From positions 1 to 35,723 of the forward strand of contig JASFPE010000003.1 of NCBI GenBank assembly GCA_050116155.1: DNA of 35,723 bases, written 5' to 3'. How positions within the stretch are numbered: position 1 is the first letter of the stretch; every line of letters starts with the position of its first letter. The notes under the pieces are model-generated. The model searched no databases. It was not told where the DNA came from and saw nothing but the letters and a program-made list of their open reading frames with translations. This document shows, in pieces, positions 6,820 to 29,039 of the stretch. The stretch comes from Desulfobacterales bacterium. Its GTDB lineage: Bacteria; Desulfobacterota; Desulfobacteria; Desulfobacterales; JAHEIW01. Position numbers and translations under genes: made by a program.

Positions 6820-7106
6820 ACCAACCTCCTTTTGTGTGTTCAGAACGCGATGTTTGCGAACGGATTACGAGTTTCTTGTCAATTGTGTATCTAATTTCGT
6901 TCCACTCCAAATAGGTAAGGGTTTCAAATGATCGAAAAAGATGAACGCTTAGATATCGGAGCCCCGATTTATTGTCAACCTAGATCTTTGAAATCAGACC
7001 CGACTTAGCTTATGCGACCTTTTTTCAGGTTGCGGTTTCGGAAACGGTATGCAAGGCATTTATGTGTTTATCCAAGCCTTTTGTCGCTGCAGTGATACAT
7101 TTTATT

Positions 7107-7136
7107 TTGACATATTAGCCCTTCATGGCATATAGT
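7107..7136 (+). promoter_or_regulatory. Putative sigma70 promoter for the TPR gene
   Basis: TTGACA (7107-7112), 18-nt spacer, TATAGT (7131-7136). Confidence 0.55.
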
Positions 7137-7173
7137 ATAATAAAATTCTATACTTATGGTGGAGGACAATTCC

Positions 7174-7689
7174 ATGATACCCAAAAGAACCTGCCTGAAT
7201 TTAATTTGTGGCCTTCTGGTTCTAACCTTTTTAATCGGACCCGGCCAGCTGTCATGGGCGCAGGAAAAGTTAGCATCCAAAAAGGATTCGGCGCTCAGTA
7301 AAACGACAAAAAAGACGACCAAAGCCATCAAAAAAGATGCGGACTATTGGTTCAGGAAGGGTGCCCTGGTGGCCACCTATGGAAACGACAAGGCTGCCAT
7401 CCGGTTTTTTGGTAAAGCCATTGCCCTGAATCCGAATCACAGTCGTGCCTATTTCGAACAGGGGGTATCCTATGGCCAGCTAGGCGATTATCAGCAGGCG
7501 ATTTCCTTAATCAACCGGGCGCTCAAGTTAGATGCGCAAAACGGGATCTATTATTACGGCAGAGGACGTGTTTATCTTTTGTCGGGGGATGATGCCAAAG
7601 CCATGGAAGATTTCAAGCATGCCGCTGAATTGGGTGATGAAGATGCCTTGAATTATTTAGATTATATCGGACAGAGTCAAGCACATTAG
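7174..7689 (+). CDS. Secreted tetratricopeptide repeat protein (ORF track start 7156)
   Basis: Signal peptide ending SWA-Q; about three TPR units (KAIALNP...AYFEQG, RALKLD...YYYGRG); GGAGGA upstream of ATG 7174. Confidence 0.8.
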   Translation: MIPKRTCLNLICGLLVLTFLIGPGQLSWAQEKLASKKDSALSKTTKKTTKAIKKDADYWFRKGALVATYGNDKAAIRFFGKAIALNPNHSRAYFEQGVSYGQLGDYQQAISLINRALKLDAQNGIYYYGRGRVYLLSGDDAKAMEDFKHAAELGDEDALNYLDYIGQSQAH

Positions 7690-8074
7690 GCCATAATCCT
7701 GTATCCCCGTCTTTAAAATATCGGATGGTTGTCATCGTTAACCCGATCAATGAAAACCCTTCTAAGCTCGCTGCATAAGGGGGTTGCTCCACAACTATGT
7801 GCGGCGCAAGTTTTTCCCTTCTTATTTTCAGGCTCAATACCCATCGGAAATCCATTAAAATAGTCCTTTATACATCAAAAAATCATCCCCTGGACGATAG
7901 TCATCCCACAAAAATTGCTTTAAAAGGTCTAAAATACTATCGATGCCCCTGGCGCTCGGAATGGGTTTATGGGTGTCAACCACCACAGAACAATCAAGTG
8001 CCGGTGACAGGATACTCGCACCTCACGTGTTTCAAACAAGATCATCAATCATATAAAAAAGGAGAACTAGAATT

Positions 8075-8953
8075 ATGATTCTCATCGGTGAAGACTTAAA
8101 TGTTATGTCCGGGGAGATCTCGCGCGTCATAAAGGAACAGGAGCCGGGGCCGATCCAGGAATGTGTCACGGAACAGACGAAAAATGGCATGGATTACCTG
8201 GACGTGAATGTGGGGCCTGTAAAAAAGGATCCGGAAGGAACCATGGAATGGCTCATCAATACGGTCCAGGCAGTTACCGAGCTGCCATTGTGTTTGGACA
8301 CCACCAATCCGGTGGCCATGGAAGCCGGCCTTAAGTTTTGCCAGAAAAAGGCTCTCATCAATTCGGCATCCGGCGCCACCGAAAGTATCGAAACCATGTT
8401 GCCGCTGGCCGCCAAATATTCGGCCGATGTGGTCCTTTCCGTCATAAACGATGCCGGCTTGCCCTCGGATGCAGACGAACGGGCAGCCAGTATCATGGAG
8501 TCGGCGGCCGTTGCTAATGAATTGGGAATTCCCAATGAGAATATCTGGGTGGATCCGGTGCTGCTGCCCATCGGTGTGGATCAACGCCAGGTAACGGCAT
8601 ATCTTGAATTCATACAGATGCTGCAGGATTTAATGCCGGGAGCTAAATCCACATGTGGATTGTCAAATTTATCCTATGGTGCCCCCAAGGAGCTCAAAAG
8701 CTTGCTTAATCGTACTTTCCTGGTGATGATCGGCAGATATGGCCAGCATTCTGCCATTGTCAGTGGCTTCGACCATGAGCTTATTCGTCTCATCCGGGGA
8801 GAGGAGCCGGAGATGGTTGAGCTCATTTATCGCGCCATGGATGAAGACGATATGGATACCTCCGCACTTCCGCAAAAGGAGCTCGAGTACGTCAAAACGG
8901 CACAAGTTCTCATGGGGAAGTCACTGTATTCACATTCCTGGTTAGAAGTCTAA
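8075..8953 (+). CDS. acsE: Methyltetrahydrofolate:corrinoid Fe-S protein methyltransferase (pterin-binding family)
   Basis: MILIGEDLN, LDVNVG, LCLDTTN, INS, WVDP, GLSNLSYG pterin-binding barrel motifs; adjacent to acsD/acsC; AGGAG RBS. Confidence 0.85.
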   Translation: MILIGEDLNVMSGEISRVIKEQEPGPIQECVTEQTKNGMDYLDVNVGPVKKDPEGTMEWLINTVQAVTELPLCLDTTNPVAMEAGLKFCQKKALINSASGATESIETMLPLAAKYSADVVLSVINDAGLPSDADERAASIMESAAVANELGIPNENIWVDPVLLPIGVDQRQVTAYLEFIQMLQDLMPGAKSTCGLSNLSYGAPKELKSLLNRTFLVMIGRYGQHSAIVSGFDHELIRLIRGEEPEMVELIYRAMDEDDMDTSALPQKELEYVKTAQVLMGKSLYSHSWLEV

Positions 8954-8968
8954 AAGGAGGCAGATATT

Positions 8969-9868
8969 ATGAAATATGAGCCACCGTTGGAGAAAATCTC
9001 TGTAAACATTAGAGAAACCGTGTTGGGACACGGGGAAAAAACCTTCAAAATAGGGGGAGAAAACACGCTGCCTTTCCATTCTTTTGAAGGCACGCTTCCG
9101 AATCTACCGGGACTTGCCCTGGAAATTCTGGATACAGAACCGCAGAATTGGGCCCCGTCGATTTTGGAACCGTACGAAGATGTCGTTTCCGACCCGGTCA
9201 GCTGGGCCAAGAAATGTGTGGAGGTATTCGGGGCCGAGATGCTCTGCCTGCGGCTTGTGAGCACCGATCCCATGGGCCAGGACGGATCACCGCAGGCAGC
9301 GGCCGAGATGACTAAAAAAGTGGCAGATGCCGTGGATGTCCCGCTGATTGTATGGGGGACGGATATGGAAGAAAAGGACGCTCAGGTCCTAACGGAAGTT
9401 GCCCGGGTGTGTGCCGGGAAAAATTTACTTCTAAGCCCTGTGGTCAAGGGGAATTACGAAAAGATTGCCCAGGCTGCACTGGAGCACGGGCACGCCATCG
9501 TAGCGCAGGCATCGATGGATGCCAATTTAACCAAAGAATTAAATATCGTCCTTTGCAAATTTTTTCCGCCAGAAAAGATCGTTGTTGATCCGACCGCTTC
9601 GGCTCTGGGTTATGGACTCGAATATACATTCTCGATCATTGAAGAAATCAAGCAATTCGGACTTACCGATAAGGACAAAATGATGCAGATGCCCATCATA
9701 TGCGATTTCGGAGGGGATTGCTGGAGAACCAAAGAGGCCAAAGAAAATCGTGAACAAGGCATTCTCTGGGAGGCCACAACCGGGATTTCGTTTCTTCTGG
9801 CCGGAGCCAATCTCCTGATCCTCAGGCACCCGGAGGCACTCAAGCTGATAAAAGAGATGGTTGTTTAA
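8969..9868 (+). CDS. acsD: Corrinoid iron-sulfur protein small subunit (AcsD/CdhD)
   Basis: IGGENTLPFHSFEG, DPVSWAKKC, VDPTASALGYGLEY, DKMMQMP, WRTKEA, LRHPE motifs. Confidence 0.92.
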   Translation: MKYEPPLEKISVNIRETVLGHGEKTFKIGGENTLPFHSFEGTLPNLPGLALEILDTEPQNWAPSILEPYEDVVSDPVSWAKKCVEVFGAEMLCLRLVSTDPMGQDGSPQAAAEMTKKVADAVDVPLIVWGTDMEEKDAQVLTEVARVCAGKNLLLSPVVKGNYEKIAQAALEHGHAIVAQASMDANLTKELNIVLCKFFPPEKIVVDPTASALGYGLEYTFSIIEEIKQFGLTDKDKMMQMPIICDFGGDCWRTKEAKENREQGILWEATTGISFLLAGANLLILRHPEALKLIKEMVV

Positions 9869-9942
9869 CTGCCCCATTGTCATTGGGGCAAAGCCCCGAA
9901 CGTTATATTTTGCTTATTTTATGAAGAAACAGGAGGTTTGTT

Positions 9943-11292
9943 ATGGCGCTCAAAGGAGCGGAAATAATGAAAATGTTGCCCAAAACCAACTGCAAAGAAT
10001 GCGGTTATGCAACCTGCTTTGCGTTTGCCATGAAGCTGGCTACCGGGGGCGCTAAACTCGACGACTGCCCTTATCTCGATCCGGAAGTTAAGACACAATT
10101 GGAGGCCGCAATGGCTCCGCCCATAAAGCTTGTGACCATCGGAACCGGCGAAAATGCGCTGTCCATTGGTGAAGAAGAAGTCATGTTTCGGCATGAAAAG
10201 ACCTTCTTTCACGAACCCGGCATCGCCATCCTGATTTCGGATCAAGCAGACGAATCGGAAATCGAAGATAAGTTAAAGCGCGTTAAGGCTTTTGATTTTG
10301 AGAGAATCGGGCAAAAGCTCAGGATCAATCTGCTGGCGCTTTGTTTTGAATCCGGCGATAAGGATAAATTCGAGGCCTTGGTCAAAAAGGCTTATGATAC
10401 CACGGAGTTTGCGCTGATCCTCATCTCGGAGGATACGGATGTCTTGTTTTCCGCCGCCGCCCTGTGTGCGGACAGAAAACCACTGGTGTATCCCATAACC
10501 AATGAGAATATGAGTGCCGCTGTCCCGAAACTCAAGGAACTCGGTGTTCCGGCAGGCGTCAGGGGGGAAAGCATCGAGGCGGTCGTATCCGTGACGTCGG
10601 ATCTAAAAGCCGCAGGAATCGAAGACATGGTTTTGGATCCCGGCTCAAAAAATATGGTGGAAGGCATTCAAAACCAAACCCTCATCAGAAGGGCTGGTTT
10701 GAAAAAGGGTTTCAGGCCCCTGGGTTATCCGACGATTGCCTTTCCCTGTTTCATGTACCCGGATAAATATAAGGAGACGGTGGCCGCCGCCGCCCTGATG
10801 ACCAAATATGCCGGCATCGTGGTGTTGTCTCAAGCCGATGAGCATTTTCTTATGCCGCTGCTGGTACACCGGTTTAATATTTATAGTGATCCCAGAAGGC
10901 CGATGACCGTCGAAGAAAAGGCATACGAGATCGGCAACCCGGATGAGAAATCTCCAATCCTGATCTCCACCAATTATGCCCTGGATTATTTTATCGTGTC
11001 TGCCGCCATTGAGGAGGCCGATATGCCGGCCTATTTATGCATCAAAGACACCGAAGGGCTGGGAGTCATGGCGGCCTGGACCTCCGGCAAGTTCAACGGG
11101 GAGGCGATTGCGGAATTTTTCGAGAAACACGGCATGCAAGACAAAGTTAAACATAGAAAGCTGATCATTCCGGGTGTGGCCAAAAAGCTGGTGGCAGAAT
11201 TGGAGGAGGAGCTTCCCGGTTGGGAAATCATCCTGGGTCCCCTGGAGGGAAGCGATATCCCAAAATTTTTATCTGAGGAGTGGACGGCATAA
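9943..11292 (+). CDS. acsC: Corrinoid iron-sulfur protein large subunit (AcsC/CdhE)
   Basis: N-terminal 4Fe-4S motif LPKTNCKECGYATCFAFA...CPY; FRHEKTF, PLGYP, NIYSDP, HRKLIIPG, LPGWEIILGP. Confidence 0.93.
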   Translation: MALKGAEIMKMLPKTNCKECGYATCFAFAMKLATGGAKLDDCPYLDPEVKTQLEAAMAPPIKLVTIGTGENALSIGEEEVMFRHEKTFFHEPGIAILISDQADESEIEDKLKRVKAFDFERIGQKLRINLLALCFESGDKDKFEALVKKAYDTTEFALILISEDTDVLFSAAALCADRKPLVYPITNENMSAAVPKLKELGVPAGVRGESIEAVVSVTSDLKAAGIEDMVLDPGSKNMVEGIQNQTLIRRAGLKKGFRPLGYPTIAFPCFMYPDKYKETVAAAALMTKYAGIVVLSQADEHFLMPLLVHRFNIYSDPRRPMTVEEKAYEIGNPDEKSPILISTNYALDYFIVSAAIEEADMPAYLCIKDTEGLGVMAAWTSGKFNGEAIAEFFEKHGMQDKVKHRKLIIPGVAKKLVAELEEELPGWEIILGPLEGSDIPKFLSEEWTA

Positions 11293-11819
11293 TGGAAGCG
11301 TTATCTGCGTCCGAAGAACAAGAAATTAGAGCAGGACTCGCTGAAATACTGGCACAGTGTGAGGCAGACCGAAGCCAGCTGATCCCCATTTTACAGAAGG
11401 TACAGGAGAGTTTCGGATATCTTCCCAAGCTGGCCATCAGCGATATCGGATCTCATTTGGGGATGACCGATGTTCAGATTTATGGTGTGGCCTCGTTCTA
11501 TAATCATTTTCGGTACATCCCTCTGGGAAAACATCCCGTTCAGATGTGTATGGGAACGGCATGCCACATGGTCGGCGGCGGGCTGGTTCTGGAAGCCCTG
11601 GAAAGGGCACTGGAAGTTGAAGTGGGCGGAATAACCGCAGACAAAGAGTTCAGTTTGGATAGGGTTGCCTGCATCGGCTGCTGCGGATTGGCTCCGGTGA
11701 TGGTGATTGGTGACAAGATTTTTCCGAAAATGACCTCTACGAAAGTGGACGAAGTGCTGGTCAACCTTAAGATGGAGGAAGAAGAAACTGCCAAGCAAGA
11801 AGCAGAAGAAGAAAATTAG
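11292..11819 (+). CDS. NuoE/HydC/HoxE-like [2Fe-2S] subunit
   Basis: LIPILQKVQ..FGYLP, VASFY, CMGTAC...CIGCC; ATG overlaps the acsC stop (TAATG). Confidence 0.9.
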   Translation: MEALSASEEQEIRAGLAEILAQCEADRSQLIPILQKVQESFGYLPKLAISDIGSHLGMTDVQIYGVASFYNHFRYIPLGKHPVQMCMGTACHMVGGGLVLEALERALEVEVGGITADKEFSLDRVACIGCCGLAPVMVIGDKIFPKMTSTKVDEVLVNLKMEEEETAKQEAEEEN

Positions 11820-11847
11820 GAATTGAGGCATTTATCAATAAGAGAAC

Positions 11848-13779
11848 ATGATGACATTTGATGAAATCAAGCAAAACGCCGTCGCGGAATGGGTGTCATT
11901 AGAACAGGACGGAATCCCGGTGATTCGGATTGGTGCCGCTACCAGTGACCGGGCTGCCGGCGCGTTGGAAGTGATTGCGGAATTCGAAAAAGAGCTTGCC
12001 AGGTTAAAGGTGGAGGCCAGGATTGTGCCGACGGGTTCTGTGGGATATGGCAACTACGAACCTCTCGTGATCATCAGCAAACCCGATTATCCCCGCATCT
12101 GCTATAACAACGTTACGCCGGATGTGGTTCCGCGTCTGGTTGAAGGGTATCTCCAGGAGGATGATCCCTGCATGGAACTGGCGCTGGGGACACTTGAAGG
12201 CGGCGACGACATTGATACTCCGCCCCATATCCCTGAATTGCCCCGCAGTGAGCATGAACAGAGGTTGCTTCTTAGAAATTCCGGATTTATCAATCCAGAG
12301 AATATCAATCACTACATTGCCCTGGGCGGTTACAGCGCTCTGACCAAGGCCCTGGAAATGAACCCGGAGGATATCATCGCGGAAATCAAGCAATCCGGAT
12401 TGCGGGGCAGAGGTGGGGCCGGATTTCCCACCGGCAGAAAACTGGAAGCCTGCCTGATGTCTGCCGATACGCCCAAGTATGTCATCTGCAACGCGGATGA
12501 AGGCGACCCCGGCGCGTTCATGGACCGGGTTGTCCTCGAGAGTGACCCCCATGCCGTTTTAGAGGGCATGATCATCTGTGCTTTTGTGCTGCAATCTTCT
12601 CAAGGGTATATTTATACGCGTATGGAGTATCCTTTGGCCGTGGAACGGCTCCAAACCGCAATTGAACAAGCCAAGCAATTCGGATTGTTGGGCGAAAATA
12701 TCCTGGGAACAGGCTTCAGTTTCGACATCGAGGTGTTTCAAGGTGCCGGGGCTTTTATTTGCGGGGAATCCAGCGCCCTGATGTATTCCCTCGAGGGAAA
12801 AAGAGGCTTCCCGCGGGTCAGACCCCCCCAGTCCATCGCATCCGGGTTTCGGCAAAAGCCCACCCAGCTCAACAACGTCAAATCCTTCGCCTATATCCCC
12901 GTGATCATCGAACGGGGAAGTGAATTCTTTGCTGACATCGGCACCGACGGCAGCAAGGGCACGGCCGTCTTTGCTCTGGCGGGCAAGGTGGAAAACGTCG
13001 GGTTGGTGGAAGTGCCCATGGGAACAACTCTGCGGACGGTCGTCGATGATATCGGCGGAGGCGTAACCGGCGGCAAAACGTTTAAAGGCGTGCAGACCGG
13101 CGGGCCTTCGGGAGGATGTTTGCCGGAATTATTTTTGGATACCCCCATCGACTTTGATTCCCTTCTGGAAGCAGGGGCAATGATGGGATCCGGCGGCATG
13201 ATCATCATGGACGAAGATAACTGCATGGTGGACGCCGCCCGTTTTTTCCTGGACTTCACCGTGCAGGAATCCTGTGGCAAGTGTGTCCTGTGCCGCCTGG
13301 GAACAACCCAGATGCTCAGCATTTTGAACGATATTGTCAGTGGCAAGGGCAATTCCGAGGATATCGAACAGCTCATCGGTTTGGGTGAAGATATCATCGC
13401 CGGATCCTTGTGCGGCCTGGGAAAATCGGCCCCAAACCCGGTGCTGACCACCATTCGATATTTTAAAGACGAGTACGAAGCCCATATTCAGGAAAAACGC
13501 TGTCCGGCACTGGTGTGCAGTGACCTGATTGCCTATTACATCATTCCGGAAAAATGTTACCGCGGGTGCGAGCACTGTATCGTCGTTTGTCCCACCGAAG
13601 CCATTGTCGAGCACCCCAAACGCTATAAGGTAGTTGATCAAGAAAAATGCGTCAAATGTGGAAATTGTTTGGAAGTCTGTCCTCCCGAATATGACGCGGT
13701 GGTCAAAATTTCACCCATCAGTGAGGTACCCCCCAGTGAGATGCCATCCGCTGAGGCGCCGCCCGACGAGGATGAATAA
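11848..13779 (+). CDS. NuoF/HydB/HoxF-like FMN- and NAD(H)-binding subunit with C-terminal 2x[4Fe-4S]
   Basis: SGLRGRGGAGFPTG, CNADEGDPGAFMDR, GAGAFICGE, GGPSGGC, ESCGKCVLCR..SLCGLG, HIQEKRCPALVC, two ferredoxin motifs. Confidence 0.92.
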   Translation: MMTFDEIKQNAVAEWVSLEQDGIPVIRIGAATSDRAAGALEVIAEFEKELARLKVEARIVPTGSVGYGNYEPLVIISKPDYPRICYNNVTPDVVPRLVEGYLQEDDPCMELALGTLEGGDDIDTPPHIPELPRSEHEQRLLLRNSGFINPENINHYIALGGYSALTKALEMNPEDIIAEIKQSGLRGRGGAGFPTGRKLEACLMSADTPKYVICNADEGDPGAFMDRVVLESDPHAVLEGMIICAFVLQSSQGYIYTRMEYPLAVERLQTAIEQAKQFGLLGENILGTGFSFDIEVFQGAGAFICGESSALMYSLEGKRGFPRVRPPQSIASGFRQKPTQLNNVKSFAYIPVIIERGSEFFADIGTDGSKGTAVFALAGKVENVGLVEVPMGTTLRTVVDDIGGGVTGGKTFKGVQTGGPSGGCLPELFLDTPIDFDSLLEAGAMMGSGGMIIMDEDNCMVDAARFFLDFTVQESCGKCVLCRLGTTQMLSILNDIVSGKGNSEDIEQLIGLGEDIIAGSLCGLGKSAPNPVLTTIRYFKDEYEAHIQEKRCPALVCSDLIAYYIIPEKCYRGCEHCIVVCPTEAIVEHPKRYKVVDQEKCVKCGNCLEVCPPEYDAVVKISPISEVPPSEMPSAEAPPDEDE

Positions 13780-13781
13780 GC

Positions 13782-14462
13782 ATGCAACAAGTTGAATTAA
13801 CCATCGATGAAAAACCCGTCAAGGCCGACGCCGGGACCAAGATTTTAGATGCCGCATTGGCGGCCGACATATACATTCCCAACCTATGTTATATACCCGA
13901 GGCCGAACTCCCCTATGGGGGGTGCCGCCTGTGTTATGTCCATGTCGAAGGCCGCGGCCTGGTGACCGCGTGTACGTTGCCGGTACAAAACGGCATGAAG
14001 GTGCAGACCCAGACTCCGGAAGTCATGCGGGTCCGGCGGACTGCCTATAAGTTGCTTATCGCTTACCATAACCTTGATTGTCGGGCCTGCTGGAAGAACA
14101 AAAAATGCGATCTGCAAAAACTTGCGGCCAAAGTCAAAGTCAAGCTCAAGCGGCCCGAAGACTTCAGAGGATTGCCCACGGAGTTTCTGCCGCTGGACAC
14201 TACCAATCCCTATATCACCTACGATCCCATTCAGTGCCTTATTTGCGGCAAATGTGTCTGGGTGTGCAGTCGGCTGCATGGAGAGCCGCTGCTGGATTTT
14301 GCCTATCGGGGAAATAAGACCAGACTGACGCTGTCTCCAGACGCCTCATTGGTAGAGGAAAAATGTCCTTCCTGTGGTCAGTGTGCAGCCGTATGCCCGA
14401 CTGCTGCGTTACGGCCCCAGGAGCCCTTAGCACAAGAGGAGCGCTCCGGAGAGGTTAGATAG
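13782..14462 (+). CDS. NuoG N-terminal / HoxU-like Fe-S subunit with no catalytic domain
   Basis: IPNLC..GGCRLC..TAC [2Fe-2S]; HNLDCRAC.....C His(Cys)3; CLICGKCVWVC and CPSCGQCAAVCP; only 226 aa. Confidence 0.88.
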   Translation: MQQVELTIDEKPVKADAGTKILDAALAADIYIPNLCYIPEAELPYGGCRLCYVHVEGRGLVTACTLPVQNGMKVQTQTPEVMRVRRTAYKLLIAYHNLDCRACWKNKKCDLQKLAAKVKVKLKRPEDFRGLPTEFLPLDTTNPYITYDPIQCLICGKCVWVCSRLHGEPLLDFAYRGNKTRLTLSPDASLVEEKCPSCGQCAAVCPTAALRPQEPLAQEERSGEVR

Positions 14463-14473
14463 TAAAACATTTA

Positions 14474-14590
14474 TGCCACTAAGACACAAAGACACAAAGT
14501 TGAATATTAACCAAAATGTTCCGCGTTTCGCTTGGCGTCTTGGTGCCTTTGTGGCAAATTATTCTCCGCCTCCGGCGGATCCGGATTAGG
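14474..14590. repeat. Palindromic 8-bp-period element (CACAAAGA-like arms) plus small GC hairpin
   Basis: tgccactaagacacaaagacacaaag ... cttggcgtcttggtgcctttgtggca; then tccgcctccggcgga at 14565-14579. Confidence 0.7.
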
Positions 14591-14632
14591 TCGTAAGAAT
14601 ATCAAATAACAACACACTAAAGGGAGTAAACA

Positions 14633-15679
14633 ATGACTGAATTGACACCAAAACAGAGGGTAATGAAACTTTTCAATAAAGAGCCGATCGATGTCATGCC
14701 CGTTTTTAGCGGTCAGGGTATGGTCCTCATCCAGGCGATCCAGGAGATGGGCATTCGATTCCCGCAGGTCCATACGTCGGCCGAATATATGGCCGGTTCG
14801 GCGATCAAAACAGCTGAAATGTTCGACTTTGACGCCTTGATCATCCCCTATGACATGTGCACCATTCCCGAAGCGATGGGAAGGGGCATCAGTCTGTATG
14901 AAGAATCGGATGATATCCTTTTTCCGACCGTTCCATATAAGTGGAATTCCCTGGATGATGTGGAATTCCCCGACGATATCCTCGAAAGGGGTCGGATGCC
15001 CTTGGTAGACGAGGCCATTAAAATTGGCAAGGCTTACGAGAACGAAAAGTATGCCGTCGGTGGATGGCTACTGGGGCCTTTCACCATGGCCGGCCAGGTT
15101 TATGAACTGGACCTGTTGCTGAAGGGACTTAGAAAAGACAAAGATAGAATCGAGGCCTTTTTATCGGATATGACCGATTTGGTAATTAAGATCGGTCAAC
15201 ACTATGAGCAAATCGGCGTGGACTACATCAGTATCCGGGAGATGGGTTCGGGATCGGACCTTATTTCGCCGCGCATGTGGAAAACGCTCATCCAGCCAAA
15301 CCTCACAAGGGTTTTTGACTCCTTGAAAATACCAACGATCAATCATATCTGCGGATCTACCGACCTGATTATTGAGATGATGCACGAATGCGGGGCCGAT
15401 GCCATCAGTGTGGATCACAAGAATACGGTTACTGAAACGCGAAAGAAGCTCGGAGACGATGTCCTGCTGTTCGGATATTTTAATCCCTATGACGCCCTGG
15501 TTACCGGCGATGTTGCCGACGTGGAGCCGGAGATCAAAAAGAACATCGACGACGGCGTGGATGCAGTATGGCCGGGATGTGATCTGTGGCCGGATGTTAA
15601 AAGAGAGAATGTCGAGGCCTATGTCCGCACCGTAAGGGAATACGGCAAAAAAGCTTCACCGGCCGTAGGAAGACTCTAA
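14633..15679 (+). CDS. MtaA/CmuA (UroD-fold) cobalamin-dependent methyltransferase
   Basis: TPKQRV..., IIPYD...EAMG, RGRMPLVDEAI, GPFTMAG, Zn-type HICG and PGC motifs; directly upstream of a corrinoid protein. Confidence 0.85.
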   Translation: MTELTPKQRVMKLFNKEPIDVMPVFSGQGMVLIQAIQEMGIRFPQVHTSAEYMAGSAIKTAEMFDFDALIIPYDMCTIPEAMGRGISLYEESDDILFPTVPYKWNSLDDVEFPDDILERGRMPLVDEAIKIGKAYENEKYAVGGWLLGPFTMAGQVYELDLLLKGLRKDKDRIEAFLSDMTDLVIKIGQHYEQIGVDYISIREMGSGSDLISPRMWKTLIQPNLTRVFDSLKIPTINHICGSTDLIIEMMHECGADAISVDHKNTVTETRKKLGDDVLLFGYFNPYDALVTGDVADVEPEIKKNIDDGVDAVWPGCDLWPDVKRENVEAYVRTVREYGKKASPAVGRL

Positions 15680-15751
15680 GCCAGGTTTTCGAAATTTCTA
15701 TTACAAACCGGAACAAGGGGTATTTAGCGGCTTAAATCCTGGTTTGTGACA

Positions 15752-15853
15752 TGGAATAATGGAATGGTGGAATAATGGAATATTGGTTTTAAAAGGAATG
15801 AATCCGTTTAAATAGAACCCAACATTCCAGCATTCCATGACTCCAACATTCCA
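15752..15853. repeat. Palindromic 8-bp-period element (TGGAATAA-like / ATTCCA arms)
   Basis: tggaataa-tggaatgg-tggaataa-tggaatat-tgg ... ccaacattccagcattccatgactccaacattcca. Confidence 0.75.
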
Positions 15854-15923
15854 ATTACATGAAACACCTCAGATACTATGTTTTACAACTTTAAGAGATG
15901 TACCAAATCATAAGGAGGGTACT

Positions 15924-16595
15924 ATGGACGATGCAAGAAAAAAAGAAATTCTTGAAAAATTGGCCGAAGCCGTTGTGGAATACGATGAAGACATGGCCAA
16001 AGAGTGGTCACAGGTCGCGCTGGACGAGAACATGGATGCATTTGAGGCCATCATGAACGGTCTGGCGGCGGGTATGGAAACCGTTGGTGACCTCTATGAC
16101 CAACAGGAATATTTTGTTCCCGAGATGCTGATGTGTGCCGACGCCCTGTATGCCGGACTGGATATTCTCAGGCCTCACATCAAAGCGGACGAACGAAAGA
16201 GAATGGGACAGGTGGTTATCGGCACGGTGCAGGGGGATGTGCATGACATTGGTAAAAATATAATTAAACTCATGTTTGATGTGGGCGGTTTTGAAGTTCA
16301 TGATCTGGGGCGCGATGTTCCCCTGGAGAAATTTGTGGAAGAACAGATGAAAACCGATTCGGAAATTGTGGCCATGTCGGCCATGATGACCACCACCATG
16401 ACGGGCATGAAAAAGGTCATCGAGATGATCAAGGAAAAGAATCCAGATGTGGCCATCATGCTGGGCGGGGCCCCGGTGACGCAAGACGTGGCAGACCTGT
16501 TTGGCGCAGACGGTTACGCGGAATCGGCCGGCAATGCCGTTCAGGAAGCCATTAAGATGATCAGCCAGTTGAGAAAACTGCAGGAAAAGGGTTAA
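15924..16595 (+). CDS. Methyltransferase cognate corrinoid protein (MtaC/MttC-like)
   Basis: Cap domain (EYFVPEML), GTVQGDVHDIGKN (DxHxxG), DLGRDVP, SAMMTTT, GGAP, GADGYA; AAGGAGG before ATG 15924. Confidence 0.92.
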   Translation: MDDARKKEILEKLAEAVVEYDEDMAKEWSQVALDENMDAFEAIMNGLAAGMETVGDLYDQQEYFVPEMLMCADALYAGLDILRPHIKADERKRMGQVVIGTVQGDVHDIGKNIIKLMFDVGGFEVHDLGRDVPLEKFVEEQMKTDSEIVAMSAMMTTTMTGMKKVIEMIKEKNPDVAIMLGGAPVTQDVADLFGADGYAESAGNAVQEAIKMISQLRKLQEKG

Positions 16596-16634
16596 CACAG
16601 ACTGAAAGAAGGAGAGATGCAAATGGAGGATAAA

Positions 16635-18683
16635 ATGGCCAAGGTAATCTTTCAACCTTCCGGTCGAAGAGGAGAGGTGCCGAAAGAAATCAGCGTTATC
16701 GAGGCCTCACGCCTATTGGGTGCAGACATCGAAGCGTTGTGCGGGGAAAAGAAAGTCTGTGGCAAGTGCAAGGTCCGGATCGAAGAGGGGTTTTTCGAAA
16801 AATACGGTATCGACTCCAAGCTATCGCATGTTAGTCCCTGGCAGGATGAGGAGGAAAAGTTCATCCATGCTGAAGAAAGATCGACGGGATACCGGCTGGG
16901 ATGCGTTGCCAAAATCCTCGGAGATCTCCTGGTCTTCGTGCCGGAAGAATCTCGGGCCGGCAAACAGGTGGTCAGCAAGGCCGCGCGCGATATACACATT
17001 GATCACGATCCGGCGGTCAAATTGTACTACGTCGAAGTCGAAAAGCCGTCATTTGAGGAACCCACCGGGGATTTTGAACGGATCTGTGCTGAACTGGAAA
17101 AGCAATATGACCTCAAAGATCTCAGCGTAGATATACAGACACTGCGGCAGCTGCCAGGGGCCTTGCGTAAAGGGGATTGGAAGGTCACGGTTAGCATATG
17201 GATGGATAAAGAAATCATTCGCGTTCGGCCGGGGAATATTGAAGCCAATTATGGTATGGCCATAGATGTTGGAACCACAACGGTGGCCGCTTATTTTTGC
17301 AACCTCTCCACCATGGAAGTCATCGACACGGTCTCCATGATGAACCCCCAGTGCAAATATGGCGAAGATGTCATGAGTCGCATCACCTATCACATGATGA
17401 ACGAGGGCGGCCTTGAAAAGATGAGCAATGACATCATCGAAGCCCTCAACACCCTGATCGACCAGGCGATTGCCGCCACCTACCCACCCAAGAAAAAGGT
17501 CAAAAAGAAAAAGGGTGAAGAAGGCCCCGATGAATGGATCGAAGTGCCGGAGGAGGGCAAGACCTATCTTCGTCTCGAAAAGGAAGATATCGAAGATATT
17601 ACGATTGGCTGCAACACCGCCATGCATCATATTTTACTTCAGCTCGACCCGGAACATGTGGGCCTGGCCCCATTTCCGCCGGTAATCCACCACAGCCTGG
17701 ATATCAAAGCCCGTGATTTGAGGATCCATATCAACCCTTCATCGAATGTGTTTGTGTTGCCGAACGAGGCCGGTTTTGTGGGAGCGGACAATGTCGGTGT
17801 CTTGATTGCCGAGGAACCTTACAACAAAGATGACATCCAGCTGATTATCGATATCGGAACCAATGGCGAGCTGGTTCTGGGTAACAAGGATAAGCTGATC
17901 TCATCGTCCTGTGCCACCGGTCCGGCATTGGAGGGTGCCCAACTGGCCTTCGGGATGCGGGCTGCCCCCGGGGCAATGGAGCGTATCAAGATCGATCCCG
18001 AAACCCATGAGGTGGATTACAAAGTTATCGGCAGAGATGCATGGCGCAAATATTCCGAGCCCAAGGATATGAAAGCCAAAGGAATCTGCGGATCCGGAAT
18101 TCTGGATTTGCTGGCCGAGCTTTACAAGGCCGGCATCGTCACCAAAAGTGGCGCCTTCAACAAAAAGGATCCGAAGTCCGACCGCTTCCGTAAAAACCCG
18201 GATACCGGCCAGTATGAATTTGTGCTGGCCTGGGCCGAAGAGACCAGTATCGATAAAGATATAGTGGTCACCCAGAAGGATGTGCGGCAGATCCAACTTG
18301 CCAAGGGAGCGCTTTATGCCGGCTGTAAACTGATGGTGCAACGCATGGGTGTTGAGAAATTGGACAAAGTCAAAATTGCCGGAGCTTTTGGAACCCACGT
18401 CGACCGCGAAAAGGCCCTGATCATGGGGTTGTTTCCGGATTGTGAGGTCGAAAAAATCGTTTCGGTCGGCAATGCCGCCGGAGATGGCTGCCGGGCGGCT
18501 CTTTTGAATCGCGAAAAACGCGTGGAGGCCAACTGGGTATCCCGTAATGTAGAATATATTGAACTAACTGTTGAGCCGAATTTTCAGCAGGAGTTTATGG
18601 GAGCCATGCAGTTGCCGCATATGACCGATACCTTTCCCCATCTGGAAGGACTCGTACCGGAAGAAATCTTAAATCAGAAATAA
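16635..18683 (+). CDS. ATP-dependent reductive activator of corrinoid proteins (RACo/AcsV-like, ASKHA domain); start may be 16617
   Basis: N-terminal [2Fe-2S] CGEKKVCGKC...RLGC; IDVGTTT, YGEDVMSRI, GFVGAD, DIGTNGE, ATGPALEG, GICGSG, IAGAFG, GNAAG. Confidence 0.92.
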   Translation: MAKVIFQPSGRRGEVPKEISVIEASRLLGADIEALCGEKKVCGKCKVRIEEGFFEKYGIDSKLSHVSPWQDEEEKFIHAEERSTGYRLGCVAKILGDLLVFVPEESRAGKQVVSKAARDIHIDHDPAVKLYYVEVEKPSFEEPTGDFERICAELEKQYDLKDLSVDIQTLRQLPGALRKGDWKVTVSIWMDKEIIRVRPGNIEANYGMAIDVGTTTVAAYFCNLSTMEVIDTVSMMNPQCKYGEDVMSRITYHMMNEGGLEKMSNDIIEALNTLIDQAIAATYPPKKKVKKKKGEEGPDEWIEVPEEGKTYLRLEKEDIEDITIGCNTAMHHILLQLDPEHVGLAPFPPVIHHSLDIKARDLRIHINPSSNVFVLPNEAGFVGADNVGVLIAEEPYNKDDIQLIIDIGTNGELVLGNKDKLISSSCATGPALEGAQLAFGMRAAPGAMERIKIDPETHEVDYKVIGRDAWRKYSEPKDMKAKGICGSGILDLLAELYKAGIVTKSGAFNKKDPKSDRFRKNPDTGQYEFVLAWAEETSIDKDIVVTQKDVRQIQLAKGALYAGCKLMVQRMGVEKLDKVKIAGAFGTHVDREKALIMGLFPDCEVEKIVSVGNAAGDGCRAALLNREKRVEANWVSRNVEYIELTVEPNFQQEFMGAMQLPHMTDTFPHLEGLVPEEILNQK

Positions 18684-18684
18684 A

Positions 18685-18811
18685 CGTGGTTCGGGTTGCG
18701 TGTTGCGCGTTGCGTGGTGCGGGTTACGCGTTACTTGTTGCGAGGTACGGGTTGCGGCTCATAGCGGTAGATTTTTTTGCCGTAAACGCGCACCGCGTAA
18801 CACGTAACACG
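18685..18811. repeat. Palindromic 7-bp-period element (CGNGTTG-like, ~10 units left, ~4 right) between convergent genes
   Basis: cgtggtt-cgggttg-cgtgttg-cgcgttg-cgtggtg-cgggtta... and cgtaaac-gcgcacc-gcgtaac-acgtaac-acg. Confidence 0.75.
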
Positions 18812-18818
18812 AGTATTT

Positions 18819-19382
18819 TTAGTATTCGATGCCCTTCCTGGCTCTGGCGCCCTGATAGTAGGGATGCTTGACCTGCACAAATTCTGTCACATAGTCAGCC
18901 TGATCCATAATTATGTCGGGCGCATTGATGCCGGTCATCACCAGCTCGACACTGTGTTTGCATTTTTCGATGAGCTCGAGAAGCTGTTCTCTTTTTAAAA
19001 CATCGAAAATGATGGTATCCAATATTTCGTCACATATGAGCAGGTGAGTTCCTCTTTCAACGGCCTCAAATGCAAAACTTAATCCTTTGGCCGCATGTTC
19101 GTAATGTGCCGGCTTTGGGCCACTGGTCATTATAAACGGATGTTTGCCAGGGCACCAATACTGGATGTTAGGGATCTTCTTAAAGATGGCCACTTCCGCC
19201 GAAGTTCCGGATTTCATGAATTGAACAATATCCACCTGAAGGCCATCGCCTGCTGCTCTCATCGCCAGTCCTATTGCCCGCGTGGTTTTACCGACACCCT
19301 GTCCATAATAGATGTGAATGAAACCAAGGCCTTTTTCCTTAATGTATCCGGTACGTTTCTGTGGATAAAATATGGTTTCCAC
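18819..19382 (-). CDS. cobO: Cob(I)alamin adenosyltransferase (CobO/BtuR family)
   Basis: GFIHIYYGQGVGKTTRAIG, VQFMK, LICDEI, ELVMTG, ADYVTE, KHPY..G..ARKGIEY; likely GTG start at 19382 after a purine-rich stretch (start uncertain). Confidence 0.88.
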   Translation of the reverse strand: METIFYPQKRTGYIKEKGLGFIHIYYGQGVGKTTRAIGLAMRAAGDGLQVDIVQFMKSGTSAEVAIFKKIPNIQYWCPGKHPFIMTSGPKPAHYEHAAKGLSFAFEAVERGTHLLICDEILDTIIFDVLKREQLLELIEKCKHSVELVMTGINAPDIIMDQADYVTEFVQVKHPYYQGARARKGIEY

Positions 19383-19441
19383 CCCCTTCTCAATTGCCAG
19401 ATGATAAAATATTTCTGTTATAAATGTAGAACCGGTTTTTC

Positions 19442-19614
19442 CGTTGCAGCGATTGGTTGTTTTCAAATCCCGTCGCGGCGGGATTACAACCGCAACGATT
19501 AAAGCACTGACGTGCTTTTGCCTTTTCGGCCTATGGCCGAAAAGGCAAGGCACCCGCTATGCGGGTGGTCGTTGACTCAGCGATCTTTTAAATTAAGATC
19601 ATCTTTGCGTCAAC
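19442..19614. other. Five abutting stem-loops upstream of cobO (candidate structured RNA or mobile-element remnant)
   Basis: Includes perfect 14-bp stem ttgccttttcggcc-tat-ggccgaaaaggcaa and cacccgc-tat-gcgggtg. Confidence 0.55.
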
Positions 19615-19739
19615 TGTTTTTATTTGTGGATTTAGAATTTTGCTGTATATTCGGGTCCTTTCATGATATCGTTAGTATTTATTAAATTTGTAATTCGATC
19701 ACGGCAGGGTATCAAATTTCTATATTTAAGGAATGGATC

Positions 19740-20321
19740 ATGAAACGCTTATGGTATGTTGGTATATGCTTGCTGATTCTGAGTCAGACCGCCATCGCAG
19801 ATGATAATTGTCCCGCCGAAGACTTTTTAAAAGGCAGACTCGAGGCCGTATTTGCGGTTTTACAGAATGAAGAACTCGCGCAACAGGCAAAGAGCGAAGA
19901 GATTGTCGAAATCGTTAGCCCCATGTTTGATTTTGCGCTGATGGCCAAGTTGACTCTGGGGAAAAAATACTGGCCCGGTCTCACCGAAGAAAACAAAGAG
20001 AAATTCACAGACCTTTTTATAAAAAAGCTGAGGGCATCATACCTCAGCAAACTCACGCTTTATTCAGATGAAAAGATCATCTATGAACCCCCGGTCCAGG
20101 ACAAGAATAAAGTCCGCATTTCAACTTATCTGATCTCCAAAGATAAGAAAATTTCCATGTTATACAAATTCTATAATTCAATGAATAGCTGGAAGATTTA
20201 TGATGTAGAGATCCAGGGTGTCAGCATTATTCGAAGTTACCGCTCTCAATTTTACGAGATCTTACAGAATGGAACGATTGATGAACTCTTATTGAAACTC
20301 GAAGAATCGGTAGATAAATAA
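19740..20321 (+). CDS. MlaC/Ttg2D-family lipid-binding periplasmic protein
   Basis: Signal peptide; FDFALMAKLTLGK.YW, WKIYDVEIQGVSIIRSYRSQF. Confidence 0.88.
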   Translation: MKRLWYVGICLLILSQTAIADDNCPAEDFLKGRLEAVFAVLQNEELAQQAKSEEIVEIVSPMFDFALMAKLTLGKKYWPGLTEENKEKFTDLFIKKLRASYLSKLTLYSDEKIIYEPPVQDKNKVRISTYLISKDKKISMLYKFYNSMNSWKIYDVEIQGVSIIRSYRSQFYEILQNGTIDELLLKLEESVDK

Positions 20322-28427: not shown

Positions 28428-29039
28428 ATGGAAATATCACCCATATTTGAAAAGACCTACCAGGATTATCTCACCCAAATTGGCGGCCTGGATCTAAACG
28501 CGCTCCAGGATAAACTTGGCATCCAGGTTTCCCAGGGCAAGGCAATCATTCCCTTCTTCGGCAAACCATATACGGTCTCCCGCGATGGCATCGATGGCCC
28601 GGATGGCAAAAAACCCCATCTTTCCCTCAGCGTCATCCTATGTAAATATCTTCTCATGTGCCCGGAATATGAACCCGGGGAAGATGACTGGGTTTCTTTT
28701 AAAGACTTTAAAGACGCAGCGCCATTAACCCATGCATTTGCCACCACCGTCACGAATCCGATTTGCAGAATGTTTTCCGGTCGGCCTTCGACGCTTGAAA
28801 AGGCCAGTAAAAAAATCGGCGGTTATACACCTGTAGAAGCATTTTCTTATGACGTGAGCATCAAATTCGATGTGCTCCCCAAAGTTCCGTTGATGCTATT
28901 GTTTAATGATAAAGATGAGGAGTTTCCCGCGCAATGCTCGGTTCTTTTTGAGAGAAGGACCGAAAATTACCTTGATATGGAATGCGTGGCCATGGTGGGA
29001 ATGCTGCTTTATAACTATTTGTCTGACCTTTCTCGATAA
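28428..29039 (+). CDS. DUF3786-like protein
   Basis: PFFG..Y.V, ILCKYL, WVSFKDF, VLPKVP..L.F.D.DEEFPA.CSVLF, YLDME pattern. Confidence 0.75.
   Translation: MEISPIFEKTYQDYLTQIGGLDLNALQDKLGIQVSQGKAIIPFFGKPYTVSRDGIDGPDGKKPHLSLSVILCKYLLMCPEYEPGEDDWVSFKDFKDAAPLTHAFATTVTNPICRMFSGRPSTLEKASKKIGGYTPVEAFSYDVSIKFDVLPKVPLMLLFNDKDEEFPAQCSVLFERRTENYLDMECVAMVGMLLYNYLSDLSR

Follow-up and report, generated by a model that had tools for sequence, protein, structure and literature searches.

The window analysed here is a stretch of 35,723 nucleotides from a Desulfobacterales bacterium (GenBank assembly GCA_050116155.1, contig JASFPE010000003.1, positions 1 to 35,723 of the forward strand), and corresponds to contig C3 of a 5.6-Mb, 663-contig genome estimated to be 87% complete. 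Nine open reading frames (ORFs), all on the + strand, occupy positions 8075-18683, and one further ORF converges on them from the − strand. Together the nine genes encode a second copy of the methyltransferase AcsE and of both subunits of the corrinoid iron-sulfur protein (CFeSP), a NuoE-NuoF-NuoG'-like flavoprotein module, and a triad of methyltransferase (MT), corrinoid protein (CP) and reductive activator (RACo2). Gene identities were obtained by Pfam and NCBIfam profile searches, in which 31 ORFs of the window were scanned. The cluster is made up as follows.

8075-8953, + strand: acsE2, paralog of the methyl-tetrahydrofolate:corrinoid protein methyltransferase gene; PF00809 (Pterin_bind, MeTr-like), E 3e-19
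8969-9868, + strand: acsD2, paralog of the CFeSP small subunit gene; PF03599 (CdhD), E 1e-46
9943-11292, + strand: acsC2, paralog of the CFeSP large subunit gene; PF03599, E 3e-87, and PF04060
11292-11819 (ORF from 11280), + strand: nuoE-like gene (BfuC), [2Fe-2S] thioredoxin-like subunit; PF01257 (2Fe-2S_thioredx), E 3e-45
11848-13779, + strand: nuoF-like gene (BfuB), FMN- and NAD(H)-binding subunit of 643 amino acids; Complex1_51K (PF01512), NADH_4Fe-4S (PF10589) and 2x[4Fe-4S] Fer4
13782-14462, + strand: nuoG' (BfuA-like), 226 amino acids, N-terminal iron-sulfur domain only; Fer2_4, NADH-G_4Fe-4S_3 and Fer4
14633-15679, + strand: MT, MtaA-like corrinoid methyltransferase of the UroD superfamily; PF01208 (URO-D, MtaA/CmuA-like), E 1e-59
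15680-15923, + strand: spacer between MT and CP with GGAAT and ATTCC repeats, recognised from sequence and predicted fold
15924-16595, + strand: CP, corrinoid protein of the MtaC/MtbC/MtgC type; PF02607 and PF02310 (B12-binding_2, B12-binding)
16617-18683, + strand: RACo2, ATP-dependent reductive activator of corrinoid proteins; PF14574, E 2e-95, with PF17651, PF17650 and Fer2

An initial annotation, made from the letters of the window alone, had read nine co-directional genes from acsE to RACo, and the ORFs and the family matches agree with it. It had also described a TAATG overlap of acsC and nuoE, which can be read in the sequence (TAA at 11290-11292, ATG at 11292-11294), a cobO converging on the end of the cluster, which is present with a PF02572 match, and a window free of acsA/acsB, cooC, metF and folD; no CODH, ACS, CooC-like, MTHFR or FolD family was found among the 31 ORFs scanned. 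The observation was therefore correct, because the genes, the junction and the absent families were all verified in the window. It had overlooked that the cluster is a composite of two separable modules, that the first of these sits where other genomes have MtrH, that the genome holds further NuoEFG trios, and that the MT has a thiol-type zinc site.

The acsEDC genes of the window are an extra copy and not half of a split pathway, since a canonical acs cluster lies elsewhere in the genome, on contig C16, in the order RACo, AcsD of 523 amino acids, CODH, ACS, AcsC, AcsE and a DUF3786 gene. The acsA/cdhA and acsB/cdhC genes that define a canonical operon are missing beside the window copy and are both on C16. 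The separate cluster that the initial annotation had suggested looking for is thus present, and its worry that this might be the only acsCDE of the genome, in an ordinary split Wood-Ljungdahl arrangement, falls away. Identity to the C16 counterparts is 45% for AcsE2, 42% for AcsD2, 48% for AcsC2 and 33% for RACo2, and AcsD2 has 299 amino acids. Six matches to the CdhD family, one ACS gene and three CODH-like genes were detected in the genome, and a single ACS gene is likewise present in nine of the ten other genomes that carry the six upstream genes. Like the AcsE and CFeSP of the Wood-Ljungdahl pathway of Moorella thermoacetica and Carboxydothermus hydrogenoformans (1f6y, 2e7f, 2yci), the window set consists of the same three families with [4Fe-4S] and corrinoid domains and with acsE, acsD and acsC adjacent to each other, but it is 42-48% identical to the organism's own canonical set, lies away from CODH/ACS, and is followed by nuoEFG' where RACo would be expected.

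The three proteins themselves look like ordinary members of their families. AcsE2 is a pterin-binding TIM barrel closely related to solved MeTr, its best solved relatives being 1f6y and 2e7f (E 1e-54, 1f6y residues 1-241); its scores lie under the cut-offs of NF005719 (234 bits, cut-off 259) and of another NCBIfam model (182, cut-off 370). AcsD2 is a small subunit of the CdhD type and scores 363 bits with NF003376 (cut-off 280). AcsC2 exceeds the cut-off of the gamma-subunit equivalog NF003195 (566 against 306 bits) and has both the N-terminal [4Fe-4S] domain and the corrinoid domain, with Cys17, Cys20, Cys25 and Cys42 invariant in 17 sequences. The W-T-S-G-K residues around the corrinoid are invariant or nearly so and are the same in the canonical copy; AcsC2 therefore fits the usual Co(I)/methyl-Co(III) cycle. 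AcsC2 residues 318-447 also match the HgcA model, at 67 bits (cut-off 275). HgcAB resembles the present locus in pairing a CFeSP-type corrinoid domain with a dedicated iron-sulfur donor, but AcsC2 has Thr380, within W-T-S-G-K, at the aligned place where the membrane-anchored HgcA has its cobalt-binding Cys in the cap helix, belongs to a full CFeSP with a small subunit, and would have a three-subunit flavoprotein as donor where HgcA has the small ferredoxin HgcB. HgcAB-like carbanion chemistry was set aside, since AcsC2 keeps the ordinary CFeSP residues.

Two other sequences in the genome may be mentioned here. A frame of 368 amino acids at C102:637-1005 matches only the corrinoid-binding end of AcsC (32% identity to AcsC2 residues 320-443) and may be an HgcA-like protein. 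A CODH gene at C232:2601-4628 is 80% identical to the CODH of the canonical acs cluster; it could stem from a recent duplication, or the bin could include DNA from a second strain.

We scanned one genome per prokaryotic species with AcsC2 and obtained 30 loci. Eighteen of them are 69-93% identical to the window protein, the closest being from a 'Candidatus Desulfatibia sp.' genome (Desulfobacterales, 93%), and the other 12, at 35-45%, come from Clostridia, Chloroflexota and Methanomicrobiales and are acs-type loci of the ordinary sort. Within the close group, every locus that reaches that far has nuoE behind acsC2 (16/16) and nuoG' is present in every locus that reaches it (13/13), while nuoE follows acsC in none of the 12 distant loci. 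The conserved synteny that the initial annotation had suggested looking for was found in ten other species-level genomes: all nine genes occur in order in 10 of the 12 close loci with enough downstream DNA, with AcsC2 at 69-88% identity and with record titles ranging from Desulfobacterales to Syntrophobacteraceae. The two exceptions are L056, from the same genus, in which the MT breaks off at residue 305 and neither CP nor RACo is present, and L068 (Desulfatibia), in which a sodium:solute symporter gene follows nuoG'. The set of six upstream genes is rare, a close AcsC2 being found in one of 150 other genomes sampled evenly from the order.

The junction of acsC2 and nuoE is conserved as well. 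The stop codon of the former and the start codon of the latter overlap in all 16 loci, by 1 nucleotide (TAATG or TGATG) in 13, by 4 nucleotides (ATGA) in two, and by 13 nucleotides, depending on the chosen start, in one. Such stop/start overlaps are typical of subunits that are made together. Three loci (L055, L063, L066) carry 300-730 extra bases between nuoE and nuoF, where the window has a gap of 28 bp, and in L066 an ORF of 105 amino acids lies inside. In the methanogen loci L078, L079, L082 and L083 (Methanomicrobiales, of the hydrogenotrophic type) AcsD, AcsC and RACo were found together.

A search of 60 relatives with the MT gave matches in 21 at E 1e-30 or better, and in at least nine of the relatives' loci among those fetched, MT, CP and RACo occur together without any of the six upstream genes. 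Seven such loci were examined upstream. Directly before the triad, five of them (L042, L046, L047, L049, L050) have a gene of the MtrH family (PF02007, E 1e-47 to 1e-52); L044 has a radical-SAM/B12-like gene in the same position, and nothing recognisable was found there in L043. The proteins of these MtrH-type clusters are 44-74% (MT), 61-81% (CP) and 49-83% (RACo) identical to those of the window, and L049 and L050 come from a sister genus (MT 73-74%; in L050 CP 81% and RACo 83%). Neither the window's genome nor two single-contig genomes from the same genus gave an MtrH-family match. Since MtrH precedes the triad in relatives and was not found in these three genomes, the six genes from acsE2 to nuoG' occupy the MtrH position. 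The cluster is thus built of two modules, A (acsE2-acsD2-acsC2-nuoEFG') and B (MT-CP-RACo2).

The surroundings of the two kinds of locus are also alike. Upstream of the triad, L042, L044 and L047 encode a PAS-HisKA_3 kinase, a LuxR-type regulator or both; upstream of acsE2, a kinase of this type occurs in L060, L066, L067 and L069, and L060 and L066 have a regulator of this type. Genes for CobO or cobalt transport flank the cluster in L058, L063, L066, L069 and L070. The methyltransferase genes upstream of the core vary: L060 and L069 encode a RamA-like activase together with MtaB (PF12176, E 1e-164 and 1e-204), and neither locus showed a further corrinoid protein by tblastn; a second UroD methyltransferase is present in L066 (by Pfam) and in L059, L067 and L071 (by tblastn, 23-25% identity). 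The core accordingly has the look of a common back end that serves various methyl donors. Just upstream of acsE2, L060 also has a gene on the − strand (L060:6879-7529) for a protein of 216 amino acids that combines the [4Fe-4S] domain of CFeSP with no more than the C-terminal part of a CdhD domain. A DUF2284 gene follows RACo in four of the triad loci (L042, L044, L046, L047).

The flavoprotein module resembles the Bfu family of electron-bifurcating enzymes. What defines this family for Schut et al. (PMC9304861) is a BfuBC core whose reactants are NAD(H) and ferredoxin, and they accept types whose BfuA lacks a catalytic domain and is fed electrons by additional subunits. According to Xiao et al. 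(PMC12018979), the minimal bifurcation site consists of FMN, B1 and C1, with C1-B3-B4 as the low-potential path to ferredoxin. The window NuoE has Cys86, Cys91, Cys127 and Cys131, the ligands of the C1 [2Fe-2S] cluster of BfuC. The best solved relatives of NuoF are all Bfu B subunits (8oh5, 9bov, Acetobacterium woodii HydB, NfnB and NiFe-HydB), which it matches at E ~1e-199 over residues 26-612, with the C-terminal ferredoxin domain included. NuoF has FMN and NADH sites, Cys476, Cys479, Cys482 and Cys522 for B1, a His/Cys motif that aligns with the B2 site, and two Cx2-3Cx2Cx3CP motifs for the [4Fe-4S] clusters B3 and B4.

One of the five metal sites of BfuB is missing from the window NuoF. 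The Cys ligands of the N-terminal B5 [2Fe-2S] cluster are gone in it and in all 13 orthologs (14/14 cluster copies); the genome's five NuoF paralogs all retain them, as do the five aligned proteins of solved structure. The NuoF linked to this cluster is therefore a separate lineage, and the loss can serve as a sequence marker for finding more members. In the Nfn of Thermococcus sibiricus, an active bifurcating enzyme, the B5 site can hold zinc, so that Xiao et al. do not treat B5 as essential (PMC12018979); that enzyme keeps the B5 site, whereas in the window NuoF the Cys are wholly gone.

NuoG' has no catalytic domain and corresponds to the N-terminal cluster domain of NuoG, HydA or HoxU alone. 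Its domains would bind a [2Fe-2S], a His-ligated [4Fe-4S] and two further [4Fe-4S] clusters, and among solved structures it comes nearest to the N-termini of FdsA and HydA. The 13 orthologs share the 15 Cys and the His without exception, and every ortholog ends at 212-232 amino acids. The two C-terminal [4Fe-4S] motifs are retained. Compared with HydABC, NfnABC/Stn and NiFe-HydABCSL, the window thus has a BfuB-like subunit (FMN/NADH, B1, the B2 motif, B3/B4), a BfuC-like C1 subunit and a BfuA-like subunit without catalytic domain, and the closest type is the truncated BfuA fed by extra subunits (accessible parts of PMC9304861 and PMC12018979). The candidate partner next to it is a corrinoid protein, in contrast to the third substrates given by Schut et al., among which no corrinoid is listed; the words 'corrinoid' and 'methyltransferase' do not occur in the main text of that paper (PMC9304861).

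The 'catalytic-less' HydABC-like trio named by the initial annotation is hence real at this locus, but as a type it is not peculiar to it. At least four other NuoEF sets are present in the genome: a NuoEFG' trio for which the scanned neighbouring ORFs offer no recognisable redox partner (C327), a NuoEFG' trio with MvhD (C56), NuoEF with a NuoG-HdrA fusion (C33), and a row made up of NuoE, a fusion of NuoF with a GltD-like domain, MetV, MetF and Hdr-like genes (C120). This organism seems to attach NuoEF modules to several one-carbon enzymes. A weaker MTHFR-like gene was seen beside a NuoG'-like match on C308.

For the triad, the best solved relative of the MT is Methanosarcina mazei MtaA (4ay7, E 3e-42). 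The zinc-site motifs H-I-C-G and P-G-C-D of the MT align with those of MtaA, including H-x-C and the third Cys, and this His-Cys-Cys set is kept in all 17 MT orthologs, of which nine belong to nine-gene clusters and eight to loci with the triad alone. In the preprint of Kountz and Balskus (PMC10418091), His-Cys-Cys marks the sulfur/selenium methyltransferases of the UroD superfamily, and O-demethylases replace one or both zinc-site Cys. The substrates of the MT would accordingly be sulfur or selenium compounds, to judge from these motifs. The MT stays under the cut-offs of all named equivalogs (NF040654, 212/400 bits; NF041608, 133/600; TIGR01463, 210/235) and is therefore called MtaA-like and not MtaA.

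CP has a B12 cap domain and a Rossmann domain with the D-x-H-x-x-G motif in the form DVHDIG, as in the MtaC/MtbC/MtgC type, and is also under all named-equivalog cut-offs (TIGR02370, 206 bits against 215). Its listed ORF opens at 15837, orthologs align only from residue 15-35 of that ORF onward, and an ATG at 15924 sits behind an AGGAGG site; the true start is most likely this ATG. RACo2 contains all four RACo Pfam families ([2Fe-2S], linker, middle and ASKHA) and Cys42, Cys48, Cys51 and Cys96, and scores 454 bits with the AcsV model (cut-off 800). It is 70-90% identical across ten nine-gene loci and 73-83% in triad-only loci except L046, where the match is in two pieces (49% and 56%). By these locus comparisons RACo2 goes with the MtaC-type CP and not with CFeSP2, the product of acsC2 and acsD2.

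Methanol was rejected as a substrate of this organism because the window's own 87%-complete genome gave no match to MtaB. Coenzyme M was likewise rejected as the methyl carrier, there being no ComA match in that genome, although no search was aimed at the bacterial pathway of coenzyme M synthesis. The genome has a very large methyl-transfer repertoire, with 13 MtaC-type corrinoid proteins, 21 UroD-family matches and 35 MttB-superfamily matches (for example on C309, C52, C143, C93 and C195). Five of the latter have one in-frame TAG and three have one in-frame TAA, and the TAG codons raise the question of pyrrolysine.

The spacer between nuoG' and MT is 170 bp and that between MT and CP 244 bp. 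In the latter, GGAAT repeats face ATTCC repeats (15750-15860) and would form a long hairpin; the predicted fold of the spacer has a minimum free energy of -62.7 kcal/mol (z -2.84), and three of 200 shuffled sequences fold as well. Rfam gave no match at gathering thresholds over the whole window, and no riboswitch was found in the spacers. In a sequence scan, 18 promoter-like sites were found against 16.2 +/- 3.8 expected and 22 terminator-like sites against 13.7 +/- 4.0 expected, with no convincing promoter or terminator between genes and no convincing intrinsic terminator between the modules. The scan therefore cannot define transcription units.

Seventeen runs of wetland RNA libraries hold part of the stretch, the best of them 52% of the sampled words. 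Neither depth nor uncovered bins in such libraries can rank genes or show silence; coverage and bridging contigs were used. Contigs of four runs, from four studies, match at 95-100% identity and cover 27, 28, 17 and 19 of the 30 bins of 6800-19800. Single contigs bridge acsE2/acsD2 (8326-9110), acsC2/nuoE (10996-11387), nuoE/nuoF (11744-12067) and CP/RACo (16404-16883). Another one, at 14439-14660, spans the entire spacer from nuoG' to MT and reaches 24 and 28 letters into the genes on either side. Between MT and CP, contigs of the four runs end loosely at 15749-15780.

We propose that the cluster is a methyl-substrate:tetrahydrofolate system in which the pterin-side step is carried out by AcsE2 together with a dedicated CFeSP that is kept reduced by the Bfu-type module, and we give this reading a probability of about 0.45. 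The order of methyl hand-over and the direction and purpose of electron flow that we infer are as follows. The UroD-type MT would transfer methyl groups from a sulfur-type substrate to the MtaC-like CP or the other way round, and RACo2 would re-reduce CP with ATP as in the MtrH-type relatives, where the set is completed by the MtrH-family enzyme, which hands the methyl on to the pterin carrier. Module A would stand in for MtrH, with AcsE2 as the pterin-side methyltransferase working with CFeSP2 and the Bfu-type NuoEFG'. AcsE2 would connect the methyl pool of CP with methyl-tetrahydrofolate and with CFeSP2, and CFeSP2 might give its methyl to, or take it from, the single ACS encoded elsewhere. 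The Bfu-type module would dock on the [4Fe-4S] domain of AcsC2 and restore Co(I) with NAD(H) and ferredoxin instead of ATP, aided by immediate methylation from methyl-tetrahydrofolate. The proposal is favoured by the overlap of acsC2 and nuoE, which is conserved, by the exchange of MtrH for six genes, by the distinct lineage of NuoF and by the absence of a RACo that goes with CFeSP2. The initial annotation had likewise proposed a methyl group taken from a substrate, two corrinoid carriers and an electron supply of low potential. That interpretation is partly supported, namely by the checks on synteny and on a second acs set; its mechanism is compatible with the observations, none of which proves it.

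Several points weigh against the proposed system. AcsE2 is nearer to the CFeSP-specific MeTr (E 1e-54) than to the pterin-binding methyltransferase 4o0q of Desulfitobacterium hafniense (E 5e-30), which we take to be the MT2 of an O-demethylase, and that AcsE2 accepts methyl groups from an MtaC-type protein is an assumption. The same-genus genomes hold one or two further pterin-binding proteins of ~269-284 amino acids that could do the pterin-side job; these proteins, found in the single-contig genomes, also weaken the idea that AcsE2 is the sole pterin methyltransferase for the genome's many MttB/CP systems. Module A occurs without an intact triad in L056 and L068, so that it is of use by itself and does not have to work for the triad. 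An ATP-dependent activator is already encoded in the cluster, and the canonical RACo stands beside the canonical CFeSP, so a second route of cobalt reduction is not obviously needed. Contact of the Bfu-type module with CFeSP2 is something we infer, and a complex prediction for AcsC2 (17-row alignment) and NuoG' (13-row alignment) gave a score of 0.00 in two runs made without controls, which speaks neither for nor against such contact. The RNA-library contigs are assembled, may contain DNA and are no proof of one transcript.

Two further objections are energetic. The transfer of a methyl group from a thioether to a pterin is strongly uphill, by ~+30 kJ/mol to judge from the Mtr and MetH reactions, and the direction of methyl flow through a His-Cys-Cys MT to tetrahydrofolate is therefore uncertain. 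The Co(II)/Co(I) couple of CFeSP lies near -500 mV; electrons from a Bfu module at ~-400 mV would therefore reduce it only if the reduction were coupled to methylation. The value of ~-400 mV is that given in the main text of Schut et al. for the mid-potential electrons that leave the A-subunit chain of Bfu enzymes (PMC9304861).

A more specific claim, that the six upstream genes form a single 'CFeSP-Bfu' complex and thus a new class of Bfu enzymes with corrinoid cobalt as third redox partner, in which the FMN/B1/C1 core would couple NAD(H) and ferredoxin to Co(II)/Co(I), bring about ATP-independent activation and might supply electrons at each turnover, is possible but doubtful. If the flavoprotein does reduce the corrinoid protein, corrinoids would join the third substrates of Bfu enzymes, cells would have a second, ATP-free way of holding cobalt at Co(I), and the exchange of a single MtrH gene for six genes would be accounted for. 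With its His-Cys-Cys MT and its signal in wetland RNA libraries, the cluster is also a concrete candidate for the genes by which sulfate reducers turn over methyl-sulfur compounds anaerobically. We know of no assigned genes for this process, and none were found in the one literature search touching on the topic.

The rather unlikely alternative that comes next is that two unrelated units are merely adjacent. Module A would then be a spare AcsE/CFeSP set for the Wood-Ljungdahl pathway with its own redox partner, serving condition-specific synthesis or cleavage of acetyl-CoA, and the pterin enzyme of the triad would be encoded elsewhere. Both modules do occur alone (the triad in at least nine loci, module A in the two exceptional loci), they are separated by 170 bp, MT and CP themselves by 244 bp, and other small pterin-binding proteins are available in the same-genus genomes. 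The identity of the MT is also not tied to that of AcsC2 (69% for AcsC2 and 65% for MT in L069, 76% and 57% in L063), which suggests shuffling of modules. Mere adjacency fits poorly, on the other hand, with the 10 of 12 informative loci that keep the two modules fused in one order across AcsC2 identities of 69-88%, and with the position of module A, which is exactly that of MtrH behind the same type of kinase and regulator. The RNA-library contig that spans the nuoG'-MT spacer, and the lack of a convincing intrinsic terminator between the modules by the sequence scan, point the same way.

Improbable to a greater degree is that module A is a redox-coupled methyltransferase which uses electrons at each turnover. 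Confurcation or bifurcation with NAD(H) and ferredoxin would be tied to the cobalt cycle and would pull thioether methyl groups onto tetrahydrofolate, or conserve energy in reverse. The coupling of acsC2 and nuoE in 16/16 loci suggests equal amounts of the proteins and not a rare repair enzyme, six genes have replaced a simple MtrH, NuoF retains the ferredoxin-side clusters of bifurcating enzymes, and the zinc site of the MT points to sulfur or selenium substrates, for which methyl transfer to pterin is uphill. But AcsC2 with its ordinary W-T-S-G-K fits the usual cobalt cycle, relatives with a near-identical MT use plain MtrH, and we know of no chemical mechanism that would let redox energy drive an SN2-type methyl transfer with Co(I) as both its start and its end point. 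If true, a turnover-coupled CFeSP-Bfu would be a soluble redox-driven counterpart of the membrane-bound Mtr and would explain how sulfate reducers take up methyl groups from thioethers (dimethylsulfide, methanethiol).

About as improbable is a flow in reverse, from methyl-tetrahydrofolate to a thiol, selenol or metalloid acceptor, which would make the cluster a split methionine-synthase-like or detoxifying system in which AcsE2 (or MtrH) loads the corrinoid and MT methylates the acceptor. This is the thermodynamically easy direction, and the MT is most like MtaA, a thiol-methylating enzyme. AcsE2 and CP match the methionine synthase model TIGR02082 (E 4e-31 and 2e-39), and the 87%-complete genome gave no MetH-like pterin-binding match apart from FolP-like, AcsE and AcsE2. 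However, MtaB lies upstream in L060 and L069, where no other corrinoid protein was detected, which fits an input of methyl groups. The sensor-kinase control and the cobalamin and cobalt neighbours look like those of an inducible catabolic unit, the patchy distribution (1/150 genomes of the order) argues against a housekeeping role, and no ComA-type gene for coenzyme M synthesis was found. Finally, that NuoEFG' serves a partner encoded elsewhere, for example of the Hdr or MetF type as its paralogs do, and is a chance neighbour of acsC2, could appeal to the at least four other NuoEF sets of the genome (C327, C56, C33, C120), but is very improbable in view of the overlap with acsC2 in 16/16 loci, the separate NuoF subfamily with its conserved loss of B5 ligands, and the absence of any other redox enzyme conserved beside the cluster.

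Every part of the proposed methyl-substrate:tetrahydrofolate system belongs to a known family, and its wiring is not described in the literature searched. Bacterial four-part corrinoid systems, which consist of a substrate methyltransferase, a corrinoid protein, a pterin methyltransferase and an activating enzyme (the MtrH-MT-CP-RACo clusters of relatives, the Mto system and O-demethylases; PMC8359953), are among the closest known: those of the MtrH type have orthologous MT, CP and RACo2 and a similar upstream kinase or regulator, but in the window six genes replace the pterin-side enzyme. O-demethylases differ further in having a carboxylate-containing site where the window MT has His-Cys-Cys (excerpts of PMC10418091). 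Like the methanogen MtaABC and MtsAB systems, the window has an MT whose nearest structure is MtaA and a CP of the MtaC/MtbC type, with MtaB upstream in two related loci; unlike them, it is from a bacterial host without a ComA match, has no MtaB of its own, and its MT and CP are under the equivalog cut-offs. The Type 1 mlp clusters described in the preprint (excerpts of PMC10418091) likewise combine an MtaA-like UroD MT with His-Cys-Cys, a corrinoid protein and a bacterial-type activase, with a suspected sulfur or selenium substrate. They have at least Mlp2 and Mlp3 and lack a tetrahydrofolate methyltransferase, whereas the window has one UroD gene and AcsE2, and it is not classed with them. 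RACo of CFeSP is similar in being a dedicated reductive activator encoded beside a corrinoid protein gene, but CFeSP2 would be reduced by an NAD(H)/ferredoxin flavoprotein and not at the expense of ATP.

The statement of the initial annotation that it did not recognise this combination as a described operon holds for the full-text literature that we searched, in which no description of CFeSP beside NuoEF or Bfu genes was found; the supplementary neighbourhood tables of PMC9304861 may hold such loci. The present arrangement is unmentioned in the available text of Sousa et al. on an mtaA-mtaB-mtaC operon with B12 synthesis genes (PMC5770442), of the review of methanol methyltransferases by Fischer et al. 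(PMC8048578) and of Welte et al. on the Mto system (PMC8359953).

Two further genes flank the cluster.

7156-7689, + strand: TPR-repeat protein gene; Pfam TPR families
18819-19553, − strand: cobO, ATP:corrinoid adenosyltransferase gene converging on the cluster; PF02572 (CobA_CobO_BtuR) at residues 77-244

The TPR-repeat gene may be the first gene of the unit. ORFs are found at its position in both same-genus loci L055 and L068 (a match of position only), the best sigma-70-like match of the region is at 7107-7136, and coverage by RNA-library contigs begins at ~7234. Between this gene and acsE2, an ORF of 93 amino acids (7797-8078) overlaps the acsE2 start. It has no family match and is matched solely in L068 (58-61%, in two pieces), and is probably no gene. 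About 10 kb downstream of the cluster, at 28428-29039, lies a DUF3786 gene that is 27% identical to another one at C16:7747-8376.

In the listed cobO ORF the CobO domain begins only at residue 77. Residues 3-37 match contigs C10, C76 and C420 at 88-97% over 30-34 residues, and the same 5' stretch matches C260 and C37 at ~55% over 52-55 residues. RNA-library contigs have loose ends at 19453-19580, within the 5' end of this ORF. The region 19440-19600 looks like a short dispersed repeat that lies outside cobO proper.

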